DNA of 64,000 bases from Thermodesulfobacteriota bacterium (GTDB lineage Bacteria; Desulfobacterota_D; UBA1144; Nemesobacterales; Nemesobacteraceae): contig OZ241964.1 of assembly GCA_965204035.1 (NCBI GenBank), forward strand, positions 1,438,726 through 1,502,725, read 5' to 3'. Positions 13,995-35,762 of the stretch are shown here, one piece after another (position 1 is the first letter of the stretch; every line of letters begins with the position of its first letter). A program made the translations under genes and the position numbers. Under the pieces are notes generated by a model. That model was not told the DNA's origin. It saw only the letters and a program-made list of their open reading frames with translations, and ran no database searches.

Positions 13995-14984
13995 ATGAAA
14001 TACGAAAAATTGACCGCAAAAAAGAAACTGCTGGATAAATATGCACCGCTGCCCGGCGCCCTTCTAAGCAATCTGGACGATTGGTTTCGGGTTGAACTGA
14101 CCTACACGAGTAACGCAATTGAAGGAAATACTCTAGGTCGCCGTGAAACCGCGCTGGTGGTCGAAAAAGGTCTCACCATCGGGGGTAAATCACTTCTTGA
14201 GCACATGGAAGCCGTAAACCACGCCCGCGCTCTTGACTGGGTCAAAGAACAAGCGAAAGGCAGACCGCATCCGCTGACCGAAGAGGATATCCTGCATATC
14301 CACCGTCTTATCATGAAGAGTATCGATGATCACAACGCCGGTCGTTACCGCGTGACGCCAGTGCGAATCTCCGGTTCGGCGGTAGCGCTGCCGAACCCGC
14401 GCAAAGTGCCGGACCTGATGAACGGGTTAGCGAAATGGCTCAAGCTGGCAACCGGCCTGCACCCGGTAGAATTGGCCGCCGAAGCCCATTACCGGCTGGT
14501 TACCATTCACCCGTTTACCGACGGCAACGGCCGCACGGCGCGGCTTCTAATGAACATGGTCCTGCTCATGTCGGGTTACCCCGCAGCAATAATACGCAAA
14601 CGCGACCGGCTGGCTTATATCGACTCGCTTGAAAAAACGCAGCTGGGCGGCTCTAAAGACGCATACATGAAAATTGTCGCGCGGGCGGTTGGCCGTTCAC
14701 TTGATATATATCTCAAGGCGGCTGAAGGCAAAACGGATACAGGCGATGATAATGCCCCCCTGCTTAAAATCGGTGAACTGGCAAAACTGGTCAACCAGAG
14801 AAATTCCACCATACGCCACTGGACCAAGGAAGGTCTGCTCGAAGTCGCCGAGATTACCGACGCCGGGTATCAACTCTATGCACAGGAGATGGTTAAAAGA
14901 ATAAGGTTAATAAACAAGCTTAAATCACGCAGATTTACGCTCAGGGAAATCAGGGAGAAAATACCGCGTGATTCTCAGGACTGA
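13995..14984 (+). CDS. Fic-domain protein fused to a C-terminal MerR-type HTH
   Basis: Fic motif HPFTDGNGRTARL. N-terminal inhibitory-helix motif SNAIEG. C-terminus LKIGELAKLVNQRNSTIRHWTKEGLL...YQLY is a MerR-like HTH. Confidence 0.85.
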   Translation: MKYEKLTAKKKLLDKYAPLPGALLSNLDDWFRVELTYTSNAIEGNTLGRRETALVVEKGLTIGGKSLLEHMEAVNHARALDWVKEQAKGRPHPLTEEDILHIHRLIMKSIDDHNAGRYRVTPVRISGSAVALPNPRKVPDLMNGLAKWLKLATGLHPVELAAEAHYRLVTIHPFTDGNGRTARLLMNMVLLMSGYPAAIIRKRDRLAYIDSLEKTQLGGSKDAYMKIVARAVGRSLDIYLKAAEGKTDTGDDNAPLLKIGELAKLVNQRNSTIRHWTKEGLLEVAEITDAGYQLYAQEMVKRIRLINKLKSRRFTLREIREKIPRDSQD

Positions 14985-17663: not shown

Positions 17664-18538
17664 GCGAAAAAAAGGGGAACCGGTCATTGATAAATCTCGG
17701 AGCAGCGCCTTTTCTTAACATGCAGCCACTCATTTATCCTCTGGAAAAAGGGGTTGTCGAGCACAGCTTTAATATAATGTATTTTGACCCTTTCCTTCTT
17801 TCCGACAATCTGTCGAAAGGAGTGGTTGATGTCGCCCCCATTCCCTCGGTTGAATTTCTAAGAGCCGACGACTACTGCATTCTGCCCGACATTTCCATAT
17901 CCTCTTTCGGAAAAGTCGACAGCGTCATACTCAAGGCACGAAAAGAAATAACGAAAATAAAAAGCGTGTCGGTTGACAGCAGGTCCAAGAGCTCAACGGC
18001 CCTGCTCAGAATCGTGCTGGAGCTCTTCCTCGGTCTTAAGCCCGAATACGTAAAAAGAGAACCCGTAAACGGTTTCCTTGAAGGAGTTGACGCCGGGATG
18101 CTTATCGGCAACGCGGGTCTTCAGGCCCGTCACCTCTCCGCGGAAAAATCCCCCTTCACGTACGACCTGGGGGAACTCTGGACGAGGGAAACCGCCCTTC
18201 CCTTCGTATACGCGGTTATGGCGATCAAAAAAGGGGACGACGCCACAGCCGAAGGCTGTAAATGTCTTGTTTCAACGAGAGAACAAGGAGTGGAATTCAT
18301 CCCGGAGATAGTGGACATCGAATCCCGAAAACTGGGCCTCAGCAGGGAGCATTGCACGACTTACCTTAAAGAAAGAATCAAGTATGACCTTGACGGCCCA
18401 AAAATTGACGGACTCATCAAGTATCGCGACCTTCTTTTCGAGCTTAACGAAATAGAGAAGAAAAACGAAATCGATTTCTACGCAGACCCTTCGGAGACGA
18501 AACCCGGAAGGAGAGGAGAATGGAAAAACGGATCATGA
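17660..18538 (+). CDS. mqnA: MqnA-like (chorismate dehydratase, futalosine pathway; VitK2_biosynth family)
   Basis: ATG overlaps the dgt stop (ATGA). INLGAAPFLNMQPLIYPL N-terminus is typical of MqnA-type periplasmic-binding-fold proteins. Confidence 0.7.
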   Translation: MSEKKGNRSLINLGAAPFLNMQPLIYPLEKGVVEHSFNIMYFDPFLLSDNLSKGVVDVAPIPSVEFLRADDYCILPDISISSFGKVDSVILKARKEITKIKSVSVDSRSKSSTALLRIVLELFLGLKPEYVKREPVNGFLEGVDAGMLIGNAGLQARHLSAEKSPFTYDLGELWTRETALPFVYAVMAIKKGDDATAEGCKCLVSTREQGVEFIPEIVDIESRKLGLSREHCTTYLKERIKYDLDGPKIDGLIKYRDLLFELNEIEKKNEIDFYADPSETKPGRRGEWKNGS

Positions 18539-19353
18539 AACTGGGCCACAGTCCCGACGCTGACGACGCGTTCATGTTCTACGCCATAGCGAGCGGAAAG
18601 GTGGCTTCCGAAAAGATAGATTTCGAGCATGTGATTGAAGACATACAGTCACTCAACAAGAGAGCCATGAAAGGAGAGCTCGAAGTAACGGCAATCTCCG
18701 CCCATGGATACCTAAGCGTGCAGGACCGCTACCGGATTCTCTCCTGCGGAGCCAGCATGGGAAAAGGGTACGGCCCCATAGTGGTTGCCAAGAAGAAAAT
18801 TTCTGACCTCAGGGGAAAAGCCGTCGCGGTACCCGGGAAGCTTACTACCGCATATCTTCTTCTGAGTCTCTACGCTGATGATTTCATCCCGGTTGAAGTG
18901 CCCTTTGACAAGATCATGGACAAGGTGCTCGGAGAAGAGGTAGACGCGGGTCTTCTTATACATGAAGGACAGCTTACCTATGAAGAGACGGGGCTTGATC
19001 TTCTGTTCGATCTTGGAGCAATGTGGGCCGAGGAGACCGATCTTCCGATGCCGCTTGGACTTAACGTGCTTCGAAGAGACATACCCCGGGGGCTTGATGC
19101 CGAAGTTCTTCGAGTACATAAAGAAAGCATAGAGTACGCCCTCTCGAACAAAAAAGAGGCTCTTGATTACGCGATGCGCTTTGGAAGGGGGATGAGCGAG
19201 GATACGGGAGAGAAGTTCGTGTTGATGTACGTAAACGAGTGGACCAGGGACCTTGGCGAAAGTGGAACCGGGGCGCTTGAGTATCTTTTTGAAAAAGCCC
19301 GCGCAAAGGGAATCATAGCCGAGAACCCAATGCTTGATATTCTCTGCGACTGA
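18520..19353 (+). CDS. mqnD: MqnD-like (1,4-dihydroxy-6-naphthoate synthase family)
   Basis: KLGHSPDADDAFMFYAI resembles the MqnD SPCPNDTF block. GGAGAGGAG RBS just upstream. Confidence 0.65.
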   Translation: MEKRIMKLGHSPDADDAFMFYAIASGKVASEKIDFEHVIEDIQSLNKRAMKGELEVTAISAHGYLSVQDRYRILSCGASMGKGYGPIVVAKKKISDLRGKAVAVPGKLTTAYLLLSLYADDFIPVEVPFDKIMDKVLGEEVDAGLLIHEGQLTYEETGLDLLFDLGAMWAEETDLPMPLGLNVLRRDIPRGLDAEVLRVHKESIEYALSNKKEALDYAMRFGRGMSEDTGEKFVLMYVNEWTRDLGESGTGALEYLFEKARAKGIIAENPMLDILCD

Positions 19354-19359
19354 TTTTTC
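19337..19359. repeat. Left copy of a perfect 23-bp direct repeat ATATTCTCTGCGACTGATTTTTC
   Basis: Covers the last codons, stop and 6 nt after mqnD. An identical string occurs at 21518..21540. Confidence 0.95.
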
Positions 19360-19519
19360 TTAGTTTATGGAAAACCTCAAACTGTCTAGCGTTTGTCAAA
19401 AACCTCCTACTCACTAAAACAACAATAAGTGGTTCATCTGGAAATATAGTACCTCAGAATAGGGTCGAGTTTGGAACTAAGAGGCAAAGTGATAACCAAG
19501 TTAAAGATGAAAAAGGAAG

Positions 19520-20137
19520 TTACCCGAACAGCTTCGAAAGCCAAGCCATAAATGATGAATTTAATTGTGTTTGAGTAGTCAGGTCCCCCGCACCGATGGT
19601 GGCTCCCATTCTATTAGGTTTCTTTCTGGTAGCCAACCAAGCATAGAATTTTGCCTTATTTGATTTGGTTGGCAAAAACTTTTTATCATCCTCCGGAATG
19701 CTATCGATATAAGATTGGGCTAACGGCCACACCGGGTCATCATCTTTAATCATCTCTATTACGAAATCTTCGAGTTCCCCGCTTGCACTGTTATTGGGCA
19801 TCAGCCAAACACCTACGGTAGGTCCGCTGTCACTGTTAATAATTATGCCACTCTGATCCAGGTTCTCCGGAGGTTCAAAATCTGCGTCAATAAGTTTTTC
19901 CCTGATATCTTTCCAACGTTGCTTCGGACAACTGTTGCTGTCCATAACAAAGCCGACAGATTTACGTCCAGCAACCTTTGTTTGCACACTGATCTGTTTT
20001 AAGATATTGGGGTATCCTTCACAATCTTTTATGTCAAACTCAAGATTCTGCAGACACCGGTCTCGGATTTGCTTGATAACGTGTTTATCATCCTGTCCTT
20101 CAACTACAAGAAGATATTCATTGCCAACCGAAGCCAT
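19520..20137 (-). CDS. Small Toprim-like protein (DUF3226/DUF4276/DUF4435-like by recollection), partner of the upstream ATPase
   Basis: N-terminal LLVVEGQDDKHVI (EGxxD, Toprim/OLD-like acidic motif) and later GELEDF acidic block. Starts 2 nt after the ATPase stop. Confidence 0.55.
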   Translation of the reverse strand: MASVGNEYLLVVEGQDDKHVIKQIRDRCLQNLEFDIKDCEGYPNILKQISVQTKVAGRKSVGFVMDSNSCPKQRWKDIREKLIDADFEPPENLDQSGIIINSDSGPTVGVWLMPNNSASGELEDFVIEMIKDDDPVWPLAQSYIDSIPEDDKKFLPTKSNKAKFYAWLATRKKPNRMGATIGAGDLTTQTQLNSSFMAWLSKLFG

Positions 20138-20139
20138 TT

Positions 20140-21267
20140 CTATCTTACCTCTATATTGTATTCGGTGGCGGATTCAAGCTCGTTTTCTGAATACCTAATG
20201 CATCTCGTCCGCCCCTCTTCTCGTTCAAGACGGATAAGGACGCCTGAAACATCTTCGGCCTCGGTTGCGGCCCGCGCAAAACCTCTCACACAGTCGAAAC
20301 TGTGGGTCGTCGCGAAAACCTGAATATTATTTTCTTGCGCCGTTCGAAGTATCATACTCCAGAACTTGTGTTGAGCAGTGTAGTGAATTCCATTTTCCGC
20401 TTCATCAATCAGAAGGAACCCGTTGCGACAGTTACCCATAGCAAGGGCAGTACTGAATAACCGGGTAGCTCCATCACCAAGACTTTTCAGTGAGACAGGG
20501 CCATGTTTTCCAAGCCTGACGACAGCTCGCCTGCCCCTCCAACGAGCTCGAACCCCTTCCTCTCCAATCATAGCTACGCGATCCACCGGATCATCAAGAA
20601 CGAGGTTCAGAGCATTAATCGCAAGATCCTCATCTTCAGTAAGTGTGACTTCATCCCAGAGTTCGGCAATCGCTCTGTTAGATAAAATTTGAGGGCCCAG
20701 CCACTGTGATTTCATCGTTGCTGGTTTCTCATCCCTGTCAATAACATGCTGGATTCTTCGTTTCATTCTCCAGTTATTTTCAAACGAACCGAGAATCAGC
20801 CATTTCTTACCCCGGAAAGTTGTCCTGAATACAGGAACATCTCTTCCCGGAAAATCGTCGGCTACTAGTTCACGAAAGCGGGAAAGGCTTTTATCATCGG
20901 GAGCGGTCAGTTTAATTTTCAGCTTTCCGGTTTTGCCCTCTGGGCCAATTTCTATCTGCGCGCCCGTGGATGGTTCTCGTCCATGGAAAAGTGCCTTGAA
21001 ATCTAGCAAATCTACTTTCTCGCCATCTTTATCAATGCCAGCAAGAAACTCTTCACGCCCTATGATTAACTCGGCCAGTACGGACTCATCTGCACGAGCC
21101 GCATAAACTTTTACCGCTTCAAGAATAGTAGTCTTTCCACAACCGTTTCTCCCCGTAAACAAGGTTACATGACCCAATTTTGGAATTGAGAGTTTGTCGA
21201 AACACCGAAACCCCTTTATTGATAAATCAGGGAGATGGAACCCTCTGTCATCTAGTTGTTTGGACAT
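20140..21267 (-). CDS. ABC/SMC-like ATPase (AAA_21-like)
   Basis: Walker A GRNGCGKTT, signature-like LKSLGDGATR, Walker B FLLIDEAENGIH, H-loop ATTHS. Start placed at MSKQLDD (ATG 21267, AAAGGA RBS). The 54-codon upstream extension in the ORF track looks non-coding. Confidence 0.75.
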   Translation of the reverse strand: MSKQLDDRGFHLPDLSIKGFRCFDKLSIPKLGHVTLFTGRNGCGKTTILEAVKVYAARADESVLAELIIGREEFLAGIDKDGEKVDLLDFKALFHGREPSTGAQIEIGPEGKTGKLKIKLTAPDDKSLSRFRELVADDFPGRDVPVFRTTFRGKKWLILGSFENNWRMKRRIQHVIDRDEKPATMKSQWLGPQILSNRAIAELWDEVTLTEDEDLAINALNLVLDDPVDRVAMIGEEGVRARWRGRRAVVRLGKHGPVSLKSLGDGATRLFSTALAMGNCRNGFLLIDEAENGIHYTAQHKFWSMILRTAQENNIQVFATTHSFDCVRGFARAATEAEDVSGVLIRLEREEGRTRCIRYSENELESATEYNIEVR

Positions 21268-21517
21268 GGTATAAAATCCTTTGACGCGGATCCTGTAGCA
21301 TGTTAACCGAGACTGGAAAGCAACGACAACCAGATTCGGACTTTCAAAACAGCCACGAAAAACGATACCGAGATATTTAAGGATTGCAAAGAAAAAATTC
21401 CATTGTGTAAGGCCGTGAAAAGCATGCATGGAATTGCAACCGTGGAAATATCATTTCAGAAACTTTCTTTGCAATTCTTCCAGCATCATTCTCCCTCCGC
21501 TTGAAAAATTAGTGTCA

Positions 21518-21540
21518 ATATTCTCTGCGACTGATTTTTC
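21518..21540. repeat. Right copy of the perfect 23-bp direct repeat
   Basis: Identical to 19337..19359. Lies just outside the stop of the convergent gene at 21564. Confidence 0.95.
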
Positions 21541-21563: not shown

Positions 21564-22640
21564 CTACCCGCCCTGACCCGTTTTCTCCGAGACCACTTTT
21601 TCAACAAATCCGAGAATAAACCCTATGAGACGGCGAAACTCACCTTCCCGTCTCCACGGCATCCTGAGCCTGTCGCTTATCTCAACCTGGATTGCGGGAA
21701 CCGAAAACCGCTTCGCGGCGAACTTGGCCACGGTCATCTGCCTTGCGGCGGGGAATATATCGGCTCCTCCGGCCGCGATTTCATGTTCCTGCGCAGCAAG
21801 ATAGAACTTATCAAGAACATCAGGAGCAGAAAGAAGAAACTCTCTCCCCGTTCCCACTCCCGGAAACAGATCCTCGGGCCTCTCGTTTCCGGTGCCGTGT
21901 ATGTCCACAACCAGATCTATTTTCCTCTCGGACAGAACTCTCCCAAGCACAGCCTTAAACCCGCAGTCGTCATAGTAATTTGGGTCTGTTTCCTGTTCCC
22001 TGTTCGCGTAAAGACAGTGGCAGCCGAGAACTAGATGCAACACGGCTCCCAGAGCGGCTGTGTAGAATTCATGACGCTTCAGTTTCCCCATCCTGGTGTG
22101 AGCGGTCGAGTGCGGACAGGTAACCAGAACAGGGACCGTGCCTTCAAGAAAAATGTTTTCTTCAGAGCGACCGTCGGGACGCATCCTGTAATACTGTTTT
22201 TGGATATTCTCGAAACTGACGGCAAAAGAAAAAGGGTCCTCTCCGCAGAGGACGGGGTCCGAGAACCAGTTGCCGCTTTTTATTATGTCCGCATCGCTGA
22301 TCTGGCTTCTGAGCTGCGGGCCGGGTTCATAGGCATAAAAAGACTCTTCTTCCAAGCGGATAACGGATCTTGAAAAAAGCTTTTTATCCACGCCTTCGAG
22401 GCAGTCCACACTCGCGATAAAGAGTTCGGAATCCGGGGGAAGCTCATAAAGCTCTCCCCTGACAGCAAGCGGGGAAGTCTCATCAAACACGGCCGCCGGA
22501 TAACCAAAAGGCGTACGGTAAAGAATACCGGGAACTCTTATCATCCTGAGCAGCCTGCATCGCTCAAGGTGCCCGCTTCTTATCCCGCCCTTTCGCAGGG
22601 TTCCGTAGACAAAAAGCTTTTCGGGCTTCGATTCGGTCAT
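21564..22640 (-). CDS. Fusion protein: gamma-glutamylcyclotransferase/AIG2-like N-domain plus N-formylglutamate amidohydrolase-like C-domain
   Basis: LFVYGTLRKG...GELYEL (GGCT-like), then VLVTCPHST...DIHGTG (FGase-like His/Asp metal motifs). Confidence 0.6.
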   Translation of the reverse strand: MTESKPEKLFVYGTLRKGGIRSGHLERCRLLRMIRVPGILYRTPFGYPAAVFDETSPLAVRGELYELPPDSELFIASVDCLEGVDKKLFSRSVIRLEEESFYAYEPGPQLRSQISDADIIKSGNWFSDPVLCGEDPFSFAVSFENIQKQYYRMRPDGRSEENIFLEGTVPVLVTCPHSTAHTRMGKLKRHEFYTAALGAVLHLVLGCHCLYANREQETDPNYYDDCGFKAVLGRVLSERKIDLVVDIHGTGNERPEDLFPGVGTGREFLLSAPDVLDKFYLAAQEHEIAAGGADIFPAARQMTVAKFAAKRFSVPAIQVEISDRLRMPWRREGEFRRLIGFILGFVEKVVSEKTGQGG

Positions 22641-25561: not shown

Positions 25562-27763
25562 GTGTCCGCGGTCGGCAACACGCTGCGAGTGTCGTGGGCT
25601 AACGACACTGATAACGGCTTTGACGCTCCTACTCATCACCTTGTGCACTACACCACCTCGGCCACCTTGAGAAGCGATTTAAGCAATGTAGGCTCAAACG
25701 TAGCCACCCAGTGGGTGGACGCGGGCCACAGCGGCACGACGACCTCGCACACGATCTCCGGTCTGAGCTACGGCACGACCTATCGGGTGCGCGTACAGAA
25801 CCAATATGTAGGGAGTGATAGTCAAAATTCCAACAGCCTTTGGACAACCAGTAGCGCTACGACCGGGGCTGCCCCCACGACCCCCACGACTCCTGCGCAG
25901 ACCGCCGAGCTTGGGGCTATCACGCCTGGCGCCGAGGGCGGAGTTCCGTCCATCTCGGTTTCCTACCGCCCCGTCACCTCCTCCTATATACAGATCGTAA
26001 AGAGCGATCAGCCCGCGTTCGGACCCGGGGACACCTGGCCGGAGCGCTACCGAGAGTGCCCCGGAAGAACCCTGCCCGGCGGCGTCGCCGCGGTGAGAAC
26101 GGAGGACACGTTTACCCCCGGAGTCAAGCGAGTCATTTTCAAGGGGTTTGATAAGGATACCACTTACCTGGTGCGGACTTGCAAAGGTTCAGTCATCTCT
26201 CCCCAGCTTTCCGTCACCACCTGGACCGTTCCCGGACCGCCGAAGGACGAGAAGGTGGTTGGCAGCAACAAGGACGGGATCTGCGTCAGATGGGCTCCTC
26301 CCGACAACAATGGCGGCGAGGGGGCGAGCATAACCGGCTACGATCTCCAGTTCAGGGAGTCTGGTGCGTGGAATAGCGAAGAGGCAAGCCACCCAAGAGA
26401 CGGATGGGTGACGGTTCCCGTCTTCGGAACCAGCACCAGCAAGGATATTCTCCGCCGCAGGGTGGATAACGGCAATGTGCTCTACACGGTGCCCGAAGGT
26501 CTGTACGATGTCCGGGTGCGGGCGAAAAACGGTATTGATCCCGGGAGCAAGTGGGTTACCAAAGAACTGGTGCAGGTGTCCGACCAGGGAACGGGTACCT
26601 GCGCCGCGGGAACATCCGTTCCCGCGCAGACTCCCCCCGCGCAGACTCCCCCCGCACAGACTCCAACGACGGGAGGCGGCGGCACCCCGGGCGGCGGCGG
26701 CACCCCGGGCGGCGGGGGTGGTACTCCTTCCGGCGGCGGTGAACCGCAACTGTCTTCAGACGCTTCCCTGAGCGGACTCCGCGTCTCTGAAGGAGACCTG
26801 ATGTTCAGCCCCGGGACGCGGGACTACGAAGTGACGGTGGGTCTTGAGGTGAGCGAACTCTCACTCACCCCAGAGGCCGGTCACCCCGACGCGGAAATAG
26901 AGATAAACGGCGTCTCCGCGCAAAGCGGAGAGGAAACGCGGATTGATCTCGGGGAGGACGAAACCGTCTCGATAACGATAACGGTCACCGCTCCCGACGG
27001 AGAGACCGCGATAACCTACACGGTAAGAGTTGCACGGGGGGAGGAGTGCGGGATAAACGACAAGGAAGCCCTCACAAGGTTCTACCGGGCCACGGGGGGA
27101 GACGAGTGGACAATGAAAGACAACTGGAACACCGAAAATCCTCTTGGGGAGTGGTACGGAGTAAGTACCGATGAAAACGAAAAAGCAATATCCCTTCTTC
27201 TGGCTGACAACAACCTTGAGGGAAAGATTCCCAGGGAGTTTCTGTGCCTCGCGGAACTCAAGGAACTCGCCCTCTGGGGCAACGAGGGGCTTTCGGGGCA
27301 TGTACCCGAAAACCATACGCTGGCGACAGAGAGGGCCGCGCTTCTTTACATTGCGCGCGCGCTTTCGCTCAACGCCGAGTGGTTCGATACTTACGAAGCC
27401 CCCTATTACGACTTCCCGGAGTGGCATGACGGGGTTACGACGGATGACGGAAGGGTAACGGAACTTTCCTTCTCGGGGGAAGACATAAGCGGAGTGATTC
27501 CCGTAATTCTCTTAACACAGCTAGAAGAGCTTGAGACTCTTGACCTTGAGTGCTCGGGCATCACCCTTGGCGGAGACGCGCCCGCGGGGGTTGAGGTAAA
27601 GGAGGGCTGCGATGAGGAAGAGGAGGAACGGCCGGACGGCGGGGGAGGCTGCGCTCTCGGAGACCAGGGGAGCGGGGGAGCGCCAGGCATCCTGCTTCTG
27701 CTGCTTGTGGCTGCCGTGTACTGGAGAGGGGCTTTTCTGAAAGTCCTCGGACGACCAGTTTGA
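25562..27763 (+). CDS. Family member 1: FN3 repeats, Pro/Thr/Gly linker, cadherin-like beta-sandwich, LRR, GGC tail; disconnected from its start codon and signal peptide (apparent phase-OFF)
   Basis: The frame is open from 25379 and encodes FCLPLSSDSPGFSRKSARTLSLLLFLLLGAFSLPDAAFAQ (signal peptide) with no ATG/GTG/TTG before 25562. FN3-like blocks (LRVSWA..YRVRVQN; VRWAPPDNNGG..YDVRVRAKN). LSGLRVSEGDL..YEVTV cadherin-like. LADNNLEGKIP LRR. Tail GGGGCALGDQGSGGAPGILLLLLVAAVYWRG. Confidence 0.75.
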   Translation: MSAVGNTLRVSWANDTDNGFDAPTHHLVHYTTSATLRSDLSNVGSNVATQWVDAGHSGTTTSHTISGLSYGTTYRVRVQNQYVGSDSQNSNSLWTTSSATTGAAPTTPTTPAQTAELGAITPGAEGGVPSISVSYRPVTSSYIQIVKSDQPAFGPGDTWPERYRECPGRTLPGGVAAVRTEDTFTPGVKRVIFKGFDKDTTYLVRTCKGSVISPQLSVTTWTVPGPPKDEKVVGSNKDGICVRWAPPDNNGGEGASITGYDLQFRESGAWNSEEASHPRDGWVTVPVFGTSTSKDILRRRVDNGNVLYTVPEGLYDVRVRAKNGIDPGSKWVTKELVQVSDQGTGTCAAGTSVPAQTPPAQTPPAQTPTTGGGGTPGGGGTPGGGGGTPSGGGEPQLSSDASLSGLRVSEGDLMFSPGTRDYEVTVGLEVSELSLTPEAGHPDAEIEINGVSAQSGEETRIDLGEDETVSITITVTAPDGETAITYTVRVARGEECGINDKEALTRFYRATGGDEWTMKDNWNTENPLGEWYGVSTDENEKAISLLLADNNLEGKIPREFLCLAELKELALWGNEGLSGHVPENHTLATERAALLYIARALSLNAEWFDTYEAPYYDFPEWHDGVTTDDGRVTELSFSGEDISGVIPVILLTQLEELETLDLECSGITLGGDAPAGVEVKEGCDEEEEERPDGGGGCALGDQGSGGAPGILLLLLVAAVYWRGAFLKVLGRPV
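26621..26665 (+). repeat. 15-bp in-frame tandem repeat x3 (CCCGCGCAGACTCCC), followed by a Gly-rich imperfect repeat
   Basis: Encodes PAQTPPAQTPPAQTP; followed by GGGGTPGGGGTPGGGGGTP. Confidence 0.9.
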
Positions 27764-27788
27764 ATTTATTCCCGCTTGCCGTTATACT
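27760..27788 (+). promoter_or_regulatory. Sigma70-type promoter copy B: TTGAAT-17-TATACT
   Basis: Same sequence as copies A and C. The member-1 stop codon TGA (27761-27763) sits inside the -35 hexamer. Confidence 0.7.
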
Positions 27789-27874
27789 GACACTCCAGTG
27801 TCAGGTAAGGAGGTAGTACAGAAAGATGAGTAAAGCAGAAAGAAATCCGTTACTGATGACTGAGAAAGGGGCTA

Positions 27875-27890
27875 CCCCCCCCCCCATTTT
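27875..27890 (+). repeat. Homopolymer tract C11-A-T4 (copy B)
   Basis: Counted directly. Leader ORF 27826..27909 stops shortly after the tract. The main frame is offset by 1 nt. Confidence 0.95.
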
Positions 27891-28060
27891 GTCTCCCGCT
27901 AAGTTCTGATTCCCCCGGTTTTTCCCGCAAGAGCACTAAAGCAATTTCCCTTCTTCCCGGACTGACCGGCGGCCATGGCGCCGCTCCGGCGGTCTCGCGC
28001 CGGGCCGCGTCCGCGTGGCGCCGCCCCGCCCTCCTCCCCGTCCTCGCGCTGCTGCTCGGC

Positions 28061-30538
28061 GTGTTCGGCCTGTTCGAGGCCGCGCCCGCCGCGGCGCAGA
28101 CCCCCGTCTGGTCGTCGGTGCTGACGGTTAATGCGGAAGGCGCAGGCCTAGGCTGCGGCGTTGTAGCCGGCTGTGGGTCTCGGTTAACGGACAATAGCTT
28201 TACGGTGGGCGGCACGGACTTTGTTATTGCTTTATTGCAGGACTACAACAGTGGCACTTATAGCGGTCAACTGAGGTTCCAGTTAGATGAGAATCCGAAT
28301 GATGCTCTGAAGGCCATGAAACTTTGTGTCGGGTCGACCTCATTTTCGCTGTCGAGCCCTTTTGGCAATCTGTACGCTTTCACCAACGCCAACCTGCCCT
28401 GGTCGGCCGGCGCCAAGGTGCCCCTGAGCATCATGGGCAGCGGCGCGTCCTGCCCGACGCCCCCGGTCTCGCTGGGCCGCGCCGGCAGCATGTCCGTCGA
28501 CGGGTTCCACCCAATGGGACCCGGACGCATGAAGATCGCCGAGGGCACATCGATCACCTACGGCATCGTGATCCACCAGCCGCCCACCGCGGATCTGACC
28601 ATCACGCCGCGACACCACAACGTCCGACCGGACGGCAGCGACTACCCCAACGTCGACACCAGTCTGCTCACGATCCACAACGCGGTCACCTGGAAAGCCG
28701 CCCCGCACCCCAACTACCTGAGCGGGGACTGGCAGCAGGCCAAATCGGTCGGGCTCACCGCCGTGGACGACAACGAGTGCAAGTCTCCGCCCGGCACCCG
28801 GTACTGGATCAGGCACCACGGCAGCGGCGGCGGTCCCGACTGGGGCGGGTGGGACCGGCAGGACCGGCACCATGGCCTGGTGATCTCGATCGAAATCATC
28901 GACGACGACTGCAAATATCTGGCCGCTTCCCCGGGCCAGGTGTATCCGGAGGAGGGCGCCAGCGCGACCTACACCGTGCGCCTGAAGACGCCGCTCGAGG
29001 ACGCCGCGTACATTTCCCCGCGCATCAGCGTCCCCGGCGACAGCGACCCCGGCGCGATCACGGTCTCTCCCGAGCGGATCCGGGTCGAAGCGGGAGACAC
29101 GAGCCCGAAGACGTTCACGGTCAGCGCCGGAAGGGACGCGAACTCCCGTAACGAGGTCCTGATCGTCGACCACAGCGTCGACTCGCCGGGGATCCCGGCG
29201 GATTACCTGGGCGCCCAGGTGACCGTCATTGTCCAGGACGAACAGAACGCGGCGAGGACGCAGGAGCGCGACGCGCTGAGCGTGACCGGGCTCGCGCTCA
29301 CGGCCGGTTCGGAGGCGGTGGCGCTGAGCCCGGCCTTCTCGACGGATGTGCTGTCCTACCGGGCGCAGGTCCCGGCGGGGACGGCGGGCGTGACGCTGGC
29401 GCCGCACTGGAGCGGCGGGGCGAGCGTGTTCGCGGGCTCGCGCCGGGGCGATACGACCTTCACGCGCCCGGCGCGGGTGCGGCCCTCGGGGACGGCGGTC
29501 GCGCTGGCGCTGGCGCCGGACGGCGGCGCGACCGAGCTGTGGGTGATGGCGAGCGACGGTTCGAGCGGCATGACGACCTACCGCATCGAGGTGACCGAGG
29601 CGCAGACGCAGGCGCAGGCTCTGACGACGGGCGGAGGAGGCACCCCGGGCGGCGGTGGCGGTTCTCCTTCCGGTGACGGAGGAGGCGGTGGAGCCCCTCC
29701 CACTGGCGGAGACAGTCCTTCGCCCGAAGAACCCCAAGAGCCTGAACAGACTGATGAGTGCGGAGATAACGACAGGGAAAACCTTGTGAGACTCTACGAC
29801 GCTACGGGCGGAGACAACTGGGATGAGGAAAAGAAGACAAACTGGAACTCCCCCGAACCTCTCGATCAGTGGTATGGAGTGGATACAGATGAAGACGGAG
29901 AGGTTGTATCCCTTCGTCTTGCGGATAACAATCTCTCCGGACAGATGCCGACAAAAGAACTTCTGTGTCTTAATGAAGACACGGAACTCAAGGAACTTGC
30001 CCTCTGGGATAACGACGGTCTCTCGGGAGAAGAGCCGGATGAACTTGTGCTTGCCGTCGAGAGAGCCGTGCTGAGAGACATAGCGGAAACGATTGACCTT
30101 AACCCCGAGTGGTTTGATGATTACGAGGAGCCCTTTGACTTCGAGAGCTGGCACTCAGGAGTTACGACGGATGAGGATGGAAGGGTGACGGGGCTTGATT
30201 TCACCGGGGAAGACATAGAGGGAGTGATTCCGGGGAGTGTTTTTGAGCTTGAAAACCTCACAGTCATAAGGAAGGGATGCGAAGTCACCCTTGAAGTCGA
30301 AGAGCCAGAGGGAGTGAATGTGATGATGGCTGAAGACTGCCCGGAGGAGACGGCACCTGAAGACATGGAAGAAATGGAGGAAGAGGAAACGGCAGCGTCC
30401 GGAGACGGGGGATGCGCCCTGGGTCAAGGGGATTCTTCTGTATCCGGCTTCGGCTTGTTCCTCGTGACTATTCTTGTCTTCGCGGCGCTTGTGAGAAAAA
30501 GGGTGCTGGTTTCCCGTCTGGCTGGGAACAGGCGGTAA
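28061..30538 (+). CDS. Family member 2: high-GC N-terminal adhesin-like region, Gly-rich linker, LRR, GGC tail; also disconnected from its leader ATG (apparent phase-OFF)
   Basis: The frame is open upstream through FCLPLSSDSPGFSRKS...RRPALLPVLALLLGVFGLFEAAPAAAQ. The only in-frame start is a GTG in the middle of the signal-peptide h-region. Cadherin-like block LSPAFSTDVLSYRAQV. LRR block LADNNLSGQMP. Tail DGGCALGQGDSSVSGFGLFLVTILVFAALVRKR. Confidence 0.75.
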   Translation: MFGLFEAAPAAAQTPVWSSVLTVNAEGAGLGCGVVAGCGSRLTDNSFTVGGTDFVIALLQDYNSGTYSGQLRFQLDENPNDALKAMKLCVGSTSFSLSSPFGNLYAFTNANLPWSAGAKVPLSIMGSGASCPTPPVSLGRAGSMSVDGFHPMGPGRMKIAEGTSITYGIVIHQPPTADLTITPRHHNVRPDGSDYPNVDTSLLTIHNAVTWKAAPHPNYLSGDWQQAKSVGLTAVDDNECKSPPGTRYWIRHHGSGGGPDWGGWDRQDRHHGLVISIEIIDDDCKYLAASPGQVYPEEGASATYTVRLKTPLEDAAYISPRISVPGDSDPGAITVSPERIRVEAGDTSPKTFTVSAGRDANSRNEVLIVDHSVDSPGIPADYLGAQVTVIVQDEQNAARTQERDALSVTGLALTAGSEAVALSPAFSTDVLSYRAQVPAGTAGVTLAPHWSGGASVFAGSRRGDTTFTRPARVRPSGTAVALALAPDGGATELWVMASDGSSGMTTYRIEVTEAQTQAQALTTGGGGTPGGGGGSPSGDGGGGGAPPTGGDSPSPEEPQEPEQTDECGDNDRENLVRLYDATGGDNWDEEKKTNWNSPEPLDQWYGVDTDEDGEVVSLRLADNNLSGQMPTKELLCLNEDTELKELALWDNDGLSGEEPDELVLAVERAVLRDIAETIDLNPEWFDDYEEPFDFESWHSGVTTDEDGRVTGLDFTGEDIEGVIPGSVFELENLTVIRKGCEVTLEVEEPEGVNVMMAEDCPEETAPEDMEEMEEEETAASGDGGCALGQGDSSVSGFGLFLVTILVFAALVRKRVLVSRLAGNRR

Positions 30539-30585
30539 AAGCTTTTTGCGTTGCACGATGCGATACGGCGCATCTCCTTAATCCC

Positions 30586-30783
30586 GGAGAGGCGCCCGCG
30601 GGGGTTGAGGTAAAAGAGGGCTGCGATGAGGAAGAGGAGGAACGGCCGGACGGCGGAGGGGGAGGCTGCGCTCTCGGAGACCAGGGGAGCGGGGGAGCGC
30701 AAGACATCCTGCTTCTGCTGCTTGTGGCTGTCGCGTACGGGAGAGGGGCTTTTCTGAGGGGGCGGCGCGGAAGAAACCTCTGA
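30586..30783 (+). pseudogene. Orphan 3' fragment of a family member (tail only, no start)
   Basis: Encodes ...APAGVEVKEGCDEEEEERPDGGGGGCALGDQGSGGAQDILLLLLVAVAYGRGAFLRGRRGRNL*, near-identical to the last ~65 codons of members 1 and 3. Lies 48 nt after the member-2 stop. Confidence 0.8.
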
Positions 30784-31024
30784 GAAGAGAGAATTCATCC
30801 GACAGGTAATCCGGGGATGTCGGGAAGCGGATTCGTTGCGGCGAAGCGCCAGGATTTTAACTGGCCGGCAAGTTTGAGGCGTGCGCGCTGTTGAGCACGC
30901 GCATATGTATCAAGGGTTTCCCCGGGTGCGAAAAAACTTCTGCCCCGGGATTTTCTGTTTCTGTTCAGAGCTTGACCGGATGCGGGAATTCTGAGAGGCG
31001 CCCGAAAGTCCTCGGGCGACCAAT

Positions 31025-31053
31025 TTGAATTTATTCCCGCTTGCCGTTATACT
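31025..31053 (+). promoter_or_regulatory. Sigma70-type promoter copy C: TTGAAT-17-TATACT
   Basis: Identical hexamers and spacer. Lies 24 nt upstream of ATG 31078. Confidence 0.7.
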
Positions 31054-31077
31054 GACGGTCGGGAGTTAGACAGAAAG

Positions 31078-34000
31078 ATGAGTAAAGCAGACAAAGATCC
31101 GTTGCTGATGACTGAGAAAGGGGCTACCCCCCCCCCCATTTTTTGTCTCCCGCTAAGATCTGATCCCCCCGGTTTTTCCCGCAAGTCCGCCCGGACGCTT
31201 TCCCTTCTCCCGTTCCTGCTGCTCGGGTTTCTGTGCCTGATGAACGCCACACCCGCTGCGGCGCAGACATCCATCTGGTCTGCGACGCTGACGACGAGGC
31301 CGACAGATAACGGTAACCGGTTCACCGGCTGCCGGAATGCCAGAAGTGGAAACACCAAATGCAGCGATACCTCCACGTTGACGGACGATGATCTTACGGT
31401 CAGTGGCACGGATTATCAGATAATATCGATTTATGCGGAGAAGAGTCGTTCCAATTCCACTCTGGTGATGCAATGGGACCAGGACGTGAGAACCGCACTG
31501 GACAGCTACAAGCTCTGCGCCGGCACGAAGCAGTATGCGTTCGCGGACGCAACGCACGCTGCCAATGATTATACCCAGTGGCAGGCCTCAGCCCTCTGGT
31601 CTGACGGCGATATGATTTCCCTGAGCATCGGCACGTCCTGCCCGAGCTATGTCCCTCCCCCCACGGTATTGCTCTCGGCCACTCCGAACCCCGTGAAAGA
31701 GGGGCATCCGGTGACGCTGACGGCCACCCTGTCTGAGGCCCTTACGATCGATGTCAACATTCCGCTTAAGTTTATCAGGGGCACGACGGGCTCGTGGGAC
31801 TACGGTGCTACGCCGCACATCTCGATCCCAAGCGGGCAGACTACCGGCACGGTCACGATCCCGACGCGGCCGGACCATGACCACGACGACGAGATCTTCA
31901 CGGTGGAAATTTTCAAGCCAAACCTGACCGCGTTGCTGACTGCGGGCAGCATGACCTCCGTTATGGTGACGATCCGTGACACGCCGCCGTCGGAGCACCC
32001 GGCCGCCCCCACGGCGACGAGAAATGCCGGCCTGAGTCGTATCACTCTGCTGACAGACACCGCCAGTACCAATGCTGCTACGGGGAACATCCAGAAGCGC
32101 GTGGAAGACAGTCTCAGCCCGTCCTTCCATTCCGACATCCTCAACTACGCGGTGCGCGTGGACGCCGGGGTGAAGAGAATACAAGTGGGTGTCACACCCC
32201 AATACCCTAACTCTATAGCTTACCTCATCATCTACAGCCAGCCGGCAATCCGCTCCGCCCCCTACACCCGTTGGGTGGAACTGGACACGGACGTCAAGCG
32301 TATACGGATCTTGGTGGATACCCCGGGAGCTGCACAAAGGCGGATCTACGAGCTGACGGTGCTTCGGGGCGGTGTCGTGGATCCGTACGCGGAGGATCAG
32401 ACCACAGTCTGGTCATCGACCCTGACGGCGAAGGAACTCTCATCAAGCTTGAGAGGTTGCGATGACTCTGATCAACTGGCTGCAAACAAGTGCTTGGAGG
32501 CCCTTACGGAAAATGAGTTCTCGTATTCGGGTACGCGCTATGGTGTCAGGTTGCTCTCACTCGGCTTCGTTAGCGGCGATTCCAACTTCCTTTTCGGACT
32601 CAACAAGGCCATCCCCAGCGCCATGAAGAACCTCTTGACGCTACACGTCGGAAAAGAACGGGCGCTCCCGCTTAGTTCCAGCACCTTTTCTTCCCAGAGC
32701 GGCAATACCCTCCAATGGTTAAGGTATGTCGTGGGAGGATGGGGAGTGGGCGGTACCGTTCTGCTGAAGCTGACGGGACCGACCTCGCCGGTCATCCCCG
32801 CGGTCTCGCTCTTGGCCACTCCGAACCCCGTGAAAGAGGGACATTCGGTGACGCTGACGGCCACTCTGTCTGCGGCGCTTCCGGTGAATACCTTCATTCC
32901 GCTTAAGTTTATTAGGAGCACGGCGGACTCGTTGGACTACGGTGCTACGCCGCACATCTCGATCCCAAGCGGGCAGACTACCGGCACGGTCACGCTGAAG
33001 ACGAAAGTGAACGTGTACGACGACGACGACGAGACGTTCACGGTGGCGATTGACGAGGACAATCTGTCCTCGAGGTTGACTGCGGGAAGCCTGTCCTCCG
33101 TCACGGTGACGATTGAGGACTACCTGCCGCCCGTCCTGCGGGAGCTCTCCCTTTTCGCCGTGGACAACAGACCCTACGCGAGACGCCTGGGTTTTGTGGA
33201 AGATGATCTTGAACCGACTTTCCACGAAGACACCCTCAACTACACGGTGCGCGTAGACGACTGGGTGCGGTATATAAGGGTGGGTGCCGAAGCCCGATAC
33301 AGTAACCCTGAAGACCCGACGAAGGTACTCGTCAACGGCGAGCCGAAGAAACCTTTCTCCAGTTTTTGGGTGGAACTGAAGGATGTCACGCCGATCGAAA
33401 TCGTGGTGAGGACTCCGCTCGGGGAGTCGCGGACCTACGCGGTGAGAGTGCTTCGGGGCAATGCCGAGACTCCGCCCGATCAGACTCCGCCCGATCAGAC
33501 TCCCCCCGATCAGACTCCCCCCGATCAGACTCCAACGACGGGCGGAGGCGGCGGTCCTCCTTCCGGCGGCGGTGAACCGCAACTGTCTTCAGACGCTTCC
33601 CTGAGCGGACTCCACGTCTCTGAAGGAGACCTGATGTTCAGCCCCGGGACGCGGGACTACAAAGTGACGGTGGGTCTTGAGGTGAGCGAATTCTCACTCA
33701 CCCCAGAGGCCGGTCACCCCGACGCGGAAATAGAGATAAACGGCGTCTCCGCGCAAAGCGGAGAGGAAACGCGGATTGATCTCGGGGAGGACGAAGAAAC
33801 CGTCTCGATAACGATAACGGTCACCGCTCCCGACGGAGAGACCGCGATAACCTACACGGTAAGAGTTGCACGGGGGGAGGAGTGCGGGATAAACGACAAG
33901 GAAGCCCTCACAAGGTTCTACCGGGCCACGGGGGGAGACGAGTGGACAATGAAAGACAACTGGAACACCGAAAATCCTCTTGGGGAGTGGTACGGAGTAA

Positions 34001-34602
34001 GTACCGATGAAAACGAAAAAGCAATATCCCTTCTTCTGGCTGACAACAACCTTGAGGGAAAGATTCCCAGGGAGTTTCTGTGCCTCGCGGAACTCAAGGA
34101 ACTCGCCCTCTGGGGCAACGAGGGGCTTTCGGGGCATGTACCCGAAAACCATACGCTGGCGACAGAGAGGGCCGCGCTTCTTTACATTGCGCGCGCGCTT
34201 TCGCTCAACGCCGAGTGGTTCGATACTTACGAAGACCCCTATTACGACTTCCCGGAGTGGCATGACGGCGTTGCGACGGATGACGGAAGGGTGACGGGGC
34301 TTTCCTTCTCTGGGGAAGACATAAGCGGAGTGATTCCCGTAATTCTCTTAAGACAGCTTGAGCGCCTTGAGACCCTTGACCTTGAGTGCTCGGACATCAC
34401 CCTTGGCGGAGACGCGCCCGCGGGGGTTGAGGTAAAAGAGGGCTGCGATGAGGAAGAGGACCTGCCGGGCGACGGAGGGGGAGGCTGCGCTCTCGGAGAC
34501 CAGGGGAGCGGGGGAGCGCCAGGCATCCTGCTTCTGCTGCTTTTGGCTGTGGCGTACGGGAGAGGGGCTTTTCTGAAGGGGCGGCGCGGAAGAAACCTCT
34601 GA
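31078..34602 (+). CDS. Family member 3 (1174 aa, intact, apparent phase-ON): 2 x [novel N-module + Calx-beta-like + cadherin-like], linker, cadherin-like, LRR, GGC tail
   Basis: Leader MSKADKDPLLMTEKGATPPPIFCLPL... joins signal peptide LLPFLLLGFLCLMNATPAAAQ. Calx-beta-like blocks (ATPNPVKEGH.VTLTATLS...DDE.FTV). Cadherin-like blocks (LSPSFHSDILNYAVRV; LEPTFHEDTLNYTVRV; FSPGTRDYKVTV). LRR. Tail GGGGCALGDQGSGGAPGILLLLLLAVAYGRGAFLKGRRGRNL. Confidence 0.85.
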   Translation: MSKADKDPLLMTEKGATPPPIFCLPLRSDPPGFSRKSARTLSLLPFLLLGFLCLMNATPAAAQTSIWSATLTTRPTDNGNRFTGCRNARSGNTKCSDTSTLTDDDLTVSGTDYQIISIYAEKSRSNSTLVMQWDQDVRTALDSYKLCAGTKQYAFADATHAANDYTQWQASALWSDGDMISLSIGTSCPSYVPPPTVLLSATPNPVKEGHPVTLTATLSEALTIDVNIPLKFIRGTTGSWDYGATPHISIPSGQTTGTVTIPTRPDHDHDDEIFTVEIFKPNLTALLTAGSMTSVMVTIRDTPPSEHPAAPTATRNAGLSRITLLTDTASTNAATGNIQKRVEDSLSPSFHSDILNYAVRVDAGVKRIQVGVTPQYPNSIAYLIIYSQPAIRSAPYTRWVELDTDVKRIRILVDTPGAAQRRIYELTVLRGGVVDPYAEDQTTVWSSTLTAKELSSSLRGCDDSDQLAANKCLEALTENEFSYSGTRYGVRLLSLGFVSGDSNFLFGLNKAIPSAMKNLLTLHVGKERALPLSSSTFSSQSGNTLQWLRYVVGGWGVGGTVLLKLTGPTSPVIPAVSLLATPNPVKEGHSVTLTATLSAALPVNTFIPLKFIRSTADSLDYGATPHISIPSGQTTGTVTLKTKVNVYDDDDETFTVAIDEDNLSSRLTAGSLSSVTVTIEDYLPPVLRELSLFAVDNRPYARRLGFVEDDLEPTFHEDTLNYTVRVDDWVRYIRVGAEARYSNPEDPTKVLVNGEPKKPFSSFWVELKDVTPIEIVVRTPLGESRTYAVRVLRGNAETPPDQTPPDQTPPDQTPPDQTPTTGGGGGPPSGGGEPQLSSDASLSGLHVSEGDLMFSPGTRDYKVTVGLEVSEFSLTPEAGHPDAEIEINGVSAQSGEETRIDLGEDEETVSITITVTAPDGETAITYTVRVARGEECGINDKEALTRFYRATGGDEWTMKDNWNTENPLGEWYGVSTDENEKAISLLLADNNLEGKIPREFLCLAELKELALWGNEGLSGHVPENHTLATERAALLYIARALSLNAEWFDTYEDPYYDFPEWHDGVATDDGRVTGLSFSGEDISGVIPVILLRQLERLETLDLECSDITLGGDAPAGVEVKEGCDEEEDLPGDGGGGCALGDQGSGGAPGILLLLLLAVAYGRGAFLKGRRGRNL
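31127..31144 (+). repeat. Homopolymer tract C11-A-T6 (copy C, in frame)
   Basis: Two more T than copies A and B. Reads ACC CCC CCC CCC ATT TTT TGT = TPPPIFC and continues into the signal peptide. Confidence 0.95.
33466..33540 (+). repeat. 15-bp in-frame tandem repeat x5 (CAGACTCCSCCCGAT)
   Basis: Encodes (E/D)QTPP repeated: ETPPDQTPPDQTPPDQTPPDQTPTT. Confidence 0.9.
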
Positions 34603-34958
34603 GAAGAGATCCCGACCGTGATATCATCCGCGCTCCTGAGCGGATGCGGGGTAAAGCCGCGACGATACCCGGCGCGCGCGTGGAAACGTCATAGAACACA
34701 TAAACTCAAGGACAGTTCAGGTCCGAAAGGCGCTTTATCAGGGGCGAGGGAGGAGATGACCGCACGGGCGGGTGTAGCGTTGGCGGGGATGATGGCGCTT
34801 GTTTCGGGATGCCGGGCCAGGGTCGGATAGCGGTTCTCCGTTTGTTCAGGCAGAAAATTTAAAAGCAGGATTGTCCCAATAGCGGCTGACGTCGTGGCGG
34901 TGAAGTTCTGGCTGCGGAAATCCGAAGCCCGAAAATCGTTACGGCGGAAAAGGCCTCA

Positions 34959-35762
34959 TCACTCAAATCTGTGCTGCCCCGGGAAAATATATCCCACAAC
35001 GAACGTCGCCACCACGATGCAGAATCCGATCACGGCTCCAAGCGCCGCCCTTCTGCCCCTCCATCCGAGGGAAAGTCGTCCGTTTATCAAAAAAGCGTAA
35101 AGAAGCCACGTAACGGTAGACCACGTTTCCTTGGCTCCCCACGTCCATCCCTCGCTCCATATTTCTTTTGCAAGTACGAAACCGATCACGAGACTCACGG
35201 TGAGAAGCGGGAACCCGAGCAGGAGACTCAGGTGGTTTATCTTGTCGAGCGTTATTAGGGAAGGGAGTTTTTTCAGGTTGCTTCCGATTCTTTTCGATTT
35301 CAACTGGTTTTCCTGGAATATGTAGATCGCGCCCGCGAGACAGGATATCGCGAAAAACGCCTCTCCAAGGAAAATGGACAGTATGTGTGCCAGCACCCAT
35401 GGGTTTTCAAGCGTCGGGTCCTGGGTAATCATCCCATCCGGAATGATCACGTAGGGCAGAGTTCCAAGGAAAGCCACGGGGAGCACGAACGCACCGAGCA
35501 CGGGGGTCCTGAACCTTAACTGCGAAACTAAAAAGACAAGAGTTATAAGCCACGAGAAAATAAAAAGGGGCCTTGAAGTGCTTCCGGCCAGCACGTCGCC
35601 GCGCATGAGGAAAACAACGAGCAGCGCGGTATGAGTAAGCACCCCCGCAACAGCGAAATAAATGCCCGCCCGGGAGATTTTTCTTTTCTGCGACCAGAGG
35701 TAAGTGCCGTAAAGAAGGGAAGAAAGCAGGTAAAGGGCGGAAATCAGATATATGGCATTCAT
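34959..35762 (-). CDS. CcsA/YpjD-type cytochrome c assembly family membrane protein
   Basis: Eight-helix-type hydrophobic profile with a Trp-rich WSEGWTWGAKETWS block resembling the WWD heme-handling motif. Confidence 0.65.
   Translation of the reverse strand: MNAIYLISALYLLSSLLYGTYLWSQKRKISRAGIYFAVAGVLTHTALLVVFLMRGDVLAGSTSRPLFIFSWLITLVFLVSQLRFRTPVLGAFVLPVAFLGTLPYVIIPDGMITQDPTLENPWVLAHILSIFLGEAFFAISCLAGAIYIFQENQLKSKRIGSNLKKLPSLITLDKINHLSLLLGFPLLTVSLVIGFVLAKEIWSEGWTWGAKETWSTVTWLLYAFLINGRLSLGWRGRRAALGAVIGFCIVVATFVVGYIFPGQHRFE

Follow-up and report, generated by a model that had tools for sequence, protein, structure and literature searches.

What is the role of a pair of genes, one encoding an ATP-binding cassette (ABC) ATPase and the other a small Toprim-like protein, that lies among housekeeping genes in a Thermodesulfobacteriota bacterium (GenBank assembly GCA_965204035.1, contig OZ241964.1, positions 1,438,726 to 1,502,725 of the forward strand; this whole stretch of 64,000 nucleotides (nt) is referred to as the window, and its numbering is used below)? 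An initial annotation, made from the sequence alone, had considered the pair a candidate abortive-infection or defence module. Following up this proposal, we find that the pair is most likely a self-contained and horizontally mobile operon of an ABC ATPase and an OLD-type Toprim protein, which by analogy with known systems would act against phages or other mobile elements in an abortive-infection-like manner; we put the probability of this reading at roughly 0.65. The two genes and their spacer are as follows:

20140-21267, minus strand: ATPase gene, 375 amino acids (aa) from the start MSKQLDD at 21267, a start supported by homologues.
20138-20139, minus strand: spacer of 2 nt between the ATPase stop and the start of the small gene, read directly from the sequence.
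19520-20137, minus strand: small gene, 205 aa, as called among the open reading frames (ORFs).

The stop codon TAG of the ATPase gene ends at 20140 and the ATG of the small gene starts at 20137, and the two genes probably form an operon with translational coupling. The tight, 2-nt coupling described in the initial annotation was thus read again from the sequence, and every motif that it had quoted for an ATPase of about 375 aa was located, as were the quoted opening and the later acidic blocks of the 205-aa partner. At its longest, the ATPase ORF extends over 20140-21429 (429 aa). The 375-aa start is favoured because the homologues are mostly 365-390 aa in length and their alignment begins at residue 1; the 429-aa reading was rejected in view of these lengths and of an in-frame TGA within the extension of a related locus (L003; related loci are given L numbers throughout).

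The small protein matched the Pfam family DUF3226 (PF11536) over nearly its whole length (1.8e-46; residues 8-204 on positions 2-207 of the 208 in the profile), with a score of 159 bits against a gathering cut-off of 27, as well as the PADLOC profile PDC-M38B (PDLC04624; 7.7e-43; residues 7-204 on positions 13-218 of 220). The AbiLii, AriB, DUF4435 and other Toprim models gave no match to this protein at E <= 1, and sequence and profile searches against the chains of the Protein Data Bank (PDB) returned noise only. The link to OLD nucleases is therefore made by fold comparison alone. An AlphaFold2 (AF2) model of the small protein was obtained with a mean predicted local distance difference test score (pLDDT) of 88 and a predicted template modelling score (pTM) of 0.84, and the first four PDB entries retrieved with it by Foldseek (6nk8_B, 6njx, 6njv and 6njw) were all C-terminal Toprim regions of class-2 OLD nucleases of Burkholderia and Xanthomonas (probability 0.96-1.00; template modelling score (TM) 0.43-0.49; best E-value 2e-3). 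AriB was only 11th in the same search (probability 0.28). As modelled, the small protein is a Toprim fold, with a parallel sheet between helices, that lies closest to the catalytic region of OLD.

Three motif segments were located in the small protein:

Residues 9-21: LLVVEGQDDKHVI, containing VEGxDD.
Residues 65-68: acidic block MDSN.
Residues 120-125: acidic block GELEDF.

Seven residues (E13, G14, D16, D17, D66, E123 and K158) were invariant in 32 family members, and a further two (E121 and D124) were conserved in at least 90% of the 32 homologues. E13, in VEGxDD, comes directly after a predicted strand (residues 8-12), while the DxD motif has an invariant first position (D66) and a second position, N68 in this protein, that is either N or D across the family. 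The two-metal site of the Burkholderia enzyme BpOLD is composed of E400, E404, D455, D457, T506, E508 and K562 (Schiltz et al., PMC6755086). Judged by order and spacing, the conserved residues of the small protein would correspond to this site in the following manner:

BpOLD E400: E13.
BpOLD E404: D17, at +4 from the Toprim glutamate in both proteins.
BpOLD D455: D66, 53 residues from E13, against 55 in BpOLD.
BpOLD D457: N68, which is N or D in the family.
BpOLD T506/E508: S119/E121/E123, 53-55 residues from N68, against 51 in BpOLD.
BpOLD K562: K158.

Since the second Asp of the DxD motif in BpOLD only hydrogen-bonds metal-bound waters (PMC6755086), an Asn could substitute at this position. 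The small protein is predicted to be an OLD-type Toprim metal-dependent nuclease and the effector of the pair. The Toprim/OLD-like nature that the initial annotation had read into this partner is borne out by the fold and by the conserved acidic residues, and acids of catalytic type, the lack of which it had named as counter-evidence, are indeed conserved.

The ATPase carries the following ABC motifs:

Residues 39-47: Walker A, GRNGCGKTT.
Residues 260-269: ABC signature-like motif, LKSLGDGATR.
Residues 284-295: Walker B and D-loop, FLLIDEAENGIH.
Residues 319-323: H-loop, ATTHS.

Across 31 homologues of the ATPase, G39, N41, G44, K45, T46, S262, G264, D265, D288 and E289 were invariant and H322 was conserved in at least 90%. 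Pfam matches were obtained with AAA_15 (4e-19) and AAA_21 (7.5e-15), and the best full-length PADLOC matches were PDC-M38A (PDLC04611; 8.3e-80; residues 13-375 on positions 3-383 of 383) and AbiLi (PDLC02336; 6.8e-48; residues 14-375 on positions 4-340 of 340). These two models fit the protein far better than those of AriA, whose matches (1e-18 to 1e-19) are partial and involve models as long as Pfam AAA_15 and AAA_21; the GajA and PtuA models of PADLOC likewise gave weak, partial matches. The AF2 model of the ATPase (pLDDT 83, pTM 0.86) retrieved SMC and Rad50 heads, PtuA, Ts OLD and GajA in Foldseek, with E-values down to 1.8e-13. Given these Pfam, PADLOC and fold matches, the protein is a compact SMC/Rad50-head-type ABC ATPase with its motifs intact, in agreement with the ABC-type ATPase first annotated here; by analogy with known systems, it is predicted to be the sensor and regulator of the pair. 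Among the profile models suggested in the initial annotation, AAA_15, AAA_21 and DUF3226 have therefore all been matched, and DUF4435 gave no match at the threshold stated above.

By sequence, the pair agrees in every particular with the PADLOC candidate system PDC-M38, as the A profile and the B profile were both matched and the two genes are adjacent on the same (minus) strand with a gap of 2 nt. The locus is one more member of an already catalogued candidate family within the ATPase-plus-Toprim class.

How strictly the two genes belong together was evident from a scan of one genome per species, in which 459 relatives were found and 80 loci from many phyla were kept. A homologue of the ATPase was encoded directly upstream on the same strand in all 81 loci compared, and the gap between stop and start was 2-6 nt in 69 of 84 related loci. 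None of six neighbours in the window was shared by any of the 81 loci, and no conserved third gene or partner was found among 142 flanking ORFs of 37 loci, these being a metabolic mix with scattered MADS, pAgo, Csm4/Csx1, AbiEi, type II restriction-modification (RM), PIN and Schlafen-like genes. A profile search of 1.84 billion representative sequences retrieved 4,297 clusters of DUF3226 proteins (at 50% identity) at E <= 1e-3; no ATPase-DUF3226 fusion was found among the best 150 representatives, each of which is a protein of about 130-275 aa that stands alone.

The pair moves between unrelated genomic contexts. A 77%-identical pair is surrounded by insertion sequence (IS) elements in L083-85, distant members (24% identity) are kept as a pair beside replication genes on Acinetobacter plasmids of 9.7-14 kb, and a distant ATPase and DUF3226 pair is encoded on the Plesiomonas plasmid NZ_CP027853.1 (L091, 4856-6600). 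On this plasmid, the pair follows P2-like tail genes (for tail protein X and for a gpD-like member of the VgrG/Pvc8 family) at a distance of a few kb downstream, a position reminiscent of the P2 defence hotspots that Rousset et al. reportedly described in 2022.

In the window itself, the operon is carried by a segment bounded by a direct repeat:

18520-19353: MqnD-like gene, a vitamin-K2 gene behind which the segment is inserted.
19337-19359, plus strand: left copy of the direct repeat, 23 nt, ATATTCTCTGCGACTGATTTTTC, comprising the last codons and the stop of the MqnD-like gene.
19360-21517: inserted segment of 2,158 bp carrying the operon, absent from relatives in which the flanks are joined.
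21518-21540, plus strand: right copy of the direct repeat, 23 nt, in the spacer that precedes the convergent gene of the GGACT family.
21564-22640: convergent GGACT-family gene, 358 aa.

The 23-nt repeat is perfect, none being expected by chance, and the GC content between its two copies is 44.3% against 50.5-51.7% in the flanks. No recombinase gene was found inside the 2,158-bp insert. The neighbours in the window are housekeeping genes, i.e. hisA, hisF, an HD protein, two genes of the MqnA/MqnD family, the GGACT-family gene, an amidohydrolase and dapF. The same site was compared in the following relatives:

L086, a sister species: flanks 85-87% identical in nt to the window; site occupied, with the same repeat.
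L087: flanks 97% identical in nt to the window; site empty.
L088 and L089: flanks 91-94% identical in nt to the window; site empty.
L092: MqnD-like protein 93% identical; site empty.
L093 and L094: MqnD-like protein 91% identical; site empty.

At the empty sites, 30-46 nt containing a single repeat-like copy separate the MqnD-like gene from the convergent GGACT gene. The insert is accessory, being present or absent between close relatives. The terms 'cassette', 'mobile' and 'AT-rich' used of this context in the initial annotation thus hold, given the 23-nt repeat, the lower GC content and the empty sites. It had also named a housekeeping module with conserved synteny as the finding that would tell against defence; the position is shared by a single sister species, the pair is missing from it in six contigs of comparable or greater closeness, and, as noted above, no wider locus shares a neighbour.

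The right copy of the repeat (L086 9731-9751) is perfectly conserved between the window and L086 within a strongly diverged spacer, and the empty sites of the closer relatives contain the variant ATATTCTCTGCGAGTAATTTTAT or ...GGATAATTTTAC. Two causes are suggested by this pattern, namely constraint on an attachment site or gene conversion of one copy by the other. When the window was compared with L086, the synonymous divergence (dS) of the pair was 0.45 and 0.74, compared with 0.47-0.81 for the flanking genes, and the ratio of non-synonymous to synonymous divergence (dN/dS) was 0.18-0.22 for the pair against 0.04-0.16 for its neighbours. According to these ratios, the pair is under purifying selection, though its evolution is quicker than that of the genes around it. 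The insert may have entered once, long ago, and later been lost precisely in some relatives, or it may have been inserted repeatedly at the same site; as the dS values of the pair do not stand out from those of the flanking genes, the first course, a single old event with losses, is no less likely than independent insertion in the window and in L086.

Two non-coding blocks are also conserved in the insert:

21268-21420, minus strand: 5' leader of about 150 nt, in frame with the ATPase here, which travels with the pair.
19386-19434, minus strand: conserved non-coding block of about 49 nt downstream of the small gene, shared with L086 only.

The leader is 81-83% identical in nt in L086 and in L003/L083-85, the latter in an unrelated, IS-flanked context, and is as conserved as coding sequence. 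Gene callers read it as part of a 429-aa protein (P0121) or, in L084/85, as a separate ORF of 58 aa. It is probably not part of the ATPase, on account of the in-frame TGA in L003. A small upstream ORF within the leader was considered and rejected: the similarity runs on past the stop in L003, so that conservation is at the level of DNA. The leader is probably a regulatory or promoter region. The 49-nt block stands out from the non-coding sequence beside it, which has diverged between the window and L086; it gave no Rfam match and no terminator-like site. Scans of the whole insert likewise found no Rfam RNA family and no terminator-like site, and promoter-like sites were not above those in shuffled sequence. 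No tRNA was found anywhere in the window.

Some further observations were made around the insert. L082 is a second assembly of the locus, of low coverage (4.85x) and 99.83% identical to the window over 2,351 nt, in which two calls, of 127 and 158 aa (1009-2085), stand in place of the 358-aa GGACT-family gene; this split is probably an assembly frameshift and not biology. A gene combining Fic with a MerR-type helix-turn-helix (window 13995-14984, plus strand; L082 8665-9639; L087 2461-3450) is located, in this lineage, immediately upstream of hisA, as is an EVE-domain gene close to it. In L088 and L089 the Fic/MerR gene is lacking, which makes this a second variable spot near the insert. On the other side, a 733-aa ORF (25562-27763, plus strand) contains low-complexity PAQTPPAQTP and GGGTPGGGG tracts, repeat-like modules and a C-terminal hydrophobic tail, and lies within a block (about 26000-35000) with a GC content of 57-67%, against about 50% elsewhere in the window. 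Cadherin- and fn3-like surface proteins are encoded in the neighbouring region of relatives (L086).

If the pair is a defence system, its mechanism can be outlined by analogy with PARIS and OLD. An oligomer of the ATPase would keep the small nuclease inactive and sense infection; once a phage-derived trigger had bound, and with ATP bound or hydrolysed, the nuclease would be released or activated. It would then cut nucleic acid by Mg2+-dependent two-metal catalysis, and its target could be tRNA (the substrate of AriB) or DNA (that of OLD and GajA). By this cleavage, the infected cell would be arrested or the invader destroyed. We also entertain two more far-reaching proposals, the chances of which are slim even when taken jointly. 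Either the DUF3226 proteins might be the smallest stand-alone effectors of the OLD-type Toprim kind, with a substrate or an activation unlike those of AriB (tRNA-Lys) and of OLD/GajA (DNA), or the 2.2-kb unit of leader and two genes might be a site-specifically inserting 'defence cassette', moved in trans through an attachment sequence of 21-23 nt at the mqnD-like gene's 3' end and alternating, within one genus, with a position where a type III CRISPR-Cas operon ends.

The same features of mobility could be those of a toxin-antitoxin or addiction module, with the nuclease as toxin and the ATPase as antitoxin, which would mainly stabilise the carrier DNA (plasmids or islands) and not protect against phages. 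The location beside replication genes on the small Acinetobacter plasmids and the spread of such a minimal unit into unrelated contexts both speak for it, and PARIS itself acts as a type II toxin-antitoxin pair (PMC13064643); the two roles are not exclusive, however, PARIS being both. Moreover, a defence role is indicated by the embedding of the pair in CRISPR-Cas operons and, by the PADLOC definition, in BREX, DISARM or RM loci, and the copy in the window is chromosomal, with close relatives that have lost the pair or never had it without obvious cost. We therefore consider an addiction module unlikely as the main role of the pair.

An association with CRISPR-Cas was seen in the genome with the empty site L092, where another part of the same contig (L095) encodes a pair of 70% identity. 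There the pair ends a type III CRISPR-Cas operon (L095 596-13343; GSU0053/GSU0054, Cas10, Csm2, RAMP and Cas02710, the last with CARF), its ATPase gene overlapping the end of the Cas02710/CARF gene by 8 nt and the pair being followed by an SNF2 helicase gene; the same arrangement at the end of CRISPR-Cas genes was found in L001 and L002. This position may reflect a functional link to type III immunity. Pressed further, it would make the pair an accessory effector of type III CRISPR-Cas acting through the CARF/cyclic-oligoadenylate pathway, and the copy in the window a stray that had split from a CRISPR locus; these three loci are indeed among the closest homologues (about 70% identity). Yet they are only three of about 85, cas genes are absent beside the pair in most of these loci, no CARF or SAVED sensor domain is recognisable in either protein, and no cas gene was found in the window within the roughly 5 kb scanned on each side, so that this explanation appears improbable. 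A housekeeping role in DNA repair or recombination like that of RecF and RecR was considered and rejected as very improbable: in sizes and domain classes the pair mirrors RecF, which as an ABC ATPase is SMC-like and has about 370 aa, and RecR, a Toprim protein of about 200 aa, and the NCBIfam recF model gave a weak, P-loop-only match, but this scored 34.8 bits against a cut-off of 172, no RecR family matched the small protein, near-identical relatives differ in whether they have the pair, synteny is not conserved in 81 loci, and the insert has a lower GC content and direct-repeat flanks.

Several points weigh against a defence system with an OLD-type nuclease. In Foldseek, the small protein reached only modest values (best E-value 2e-3; TM 0.43-0.49), and no solved structure was matched by its sequence or profile; the correspondence with BpOLD is drawn from residue order and spacing, and the second Asp of the DxD motif is an Asn here and in most family members. 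At the level of genomic context, most flanking genes in the 37 sampled loci are metabolic, with defence genes just scattered among them, and no homologue was found in the phage collection. DUF3226, PF11536 and PDC-M38 were found in no main text of the literature searched, PDC-M38 being named there only in a supplementary table. Finally, in the only assay published for HEC-01, a related candidate (bioRxiv 10.1101/2024.01.29.577857), no protection was seen, and for this reason the defence role of the pair, drawn by analogy, is held to be likely and not established.

Bacterial immunity makes repeated use of the combination of an ATPase with a Toprim protein (OLD, Gabija, PARIS, AbiL and retron effectors). 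To our knowledge, PARIS is the only one of the ATPase-plus-Toprim systems for which the mechanism of sensing and release has been worked out. DUF3226 is a large, multi-phylum family (about 4,300 clusters), with no published characterisation in the literature searched. With 205 aa, its member in the window is an unusually small effector and therefore a convenient minimal model for the control of a Toprim nuclease by an ABC ATPase. The locus also provides a natural experiment, with near-identical genomes that do or do not carry the insert and the same module at the CRISPR-Cas locus of a congener. What it adds is this clean insertion polymorphism together with a very small Toprim effector.

Among known systems, PDC-M38 is the closest, and nothing structural distinguishes it from the pair described here. 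It is one of 145 PADLOC candidates and was defined through embedding in BREX, DISARM or type I RM loci, i.e. 'guilt by embedding' (Payne et al., bioRxiv 10.1101/2024.01.29.577857); the name is a label for a candidate and not for a characterised system, and the pair in the window is not embedded in a BREX, DISARM or type I RM locus. The suggestion that the pair is a distinct variant is accordingly correct in that its effector differs from the AriB family, and incorrect in so far as it implied novelty, the family being already catalogued. HEC-01, an ATPase and TOPRIM candidate embedded in Hachiman-type loci, shares the two-gene architecture, but it is a different family, given weak and partial matches only (HEC-01A, 1.2e-11; HEC-01B, 0.0055, over the region from the E-motif to DxD).

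The OLD proteins (P2 Old and Bp, Xcc and Ts OLD) and GajA of Gabija also combine an ABC ATPase with a Toprim nuclease, and the catalytic regions of Bp and Xcc OLD provide the best structural match; the candidate catalytic residues also come in the same order. In OLD and GajA, however, the two parts are fused, whereas they are separate genes here, and no GajB-like helicase gene is adjacent in the window. AbiL of Lactococcus (AbiLi/AbiLii) is, like the present pair, a two-gene operon of an ABC ATPase together with a Toprim/OLD-like nuclease; the ATPase matches AbiLi, and structure prediction has placed AbiLii in the OLD fold (PMC13064643). The partner, on the other hand, gave no match to the AbiLii model at E <= 1, and the effector thus belongs to another sequence family (DUF3226).

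In PARIS (AriA/AriB), adjacent genes likewise encode an ABC ATPase as sensor and, separately, a Toprim nuclease as effector. PARIS differs in that AriA, of 53-55 kDa, has coiled-coil insertions, compared with an ATPase of 375 aa here, and in that AriB is a DUF4435 protein of 35 kDa, compared with a DUF3226 protein of about 23 kDa (205 aa) that gave no match to the AriB model, so that the observation of a partner shorter than AriB was sound (PMC11464382). As the effector matches neither AriB nor AbiLii and the ATPase and nuclease are unfused, the pair is not PARIS, AbiL or OLD. The logic of an ABC ATPase with a Toprim nuclease, to which the initial annotation had pointed by naming PARIS and OLD/Gabija, is nevertheless the same; the pair is akin to PARIS, AbiL and OLD in this logic while being a member of none, and PARIS is the best mechanistic model for it (PMC11464382).

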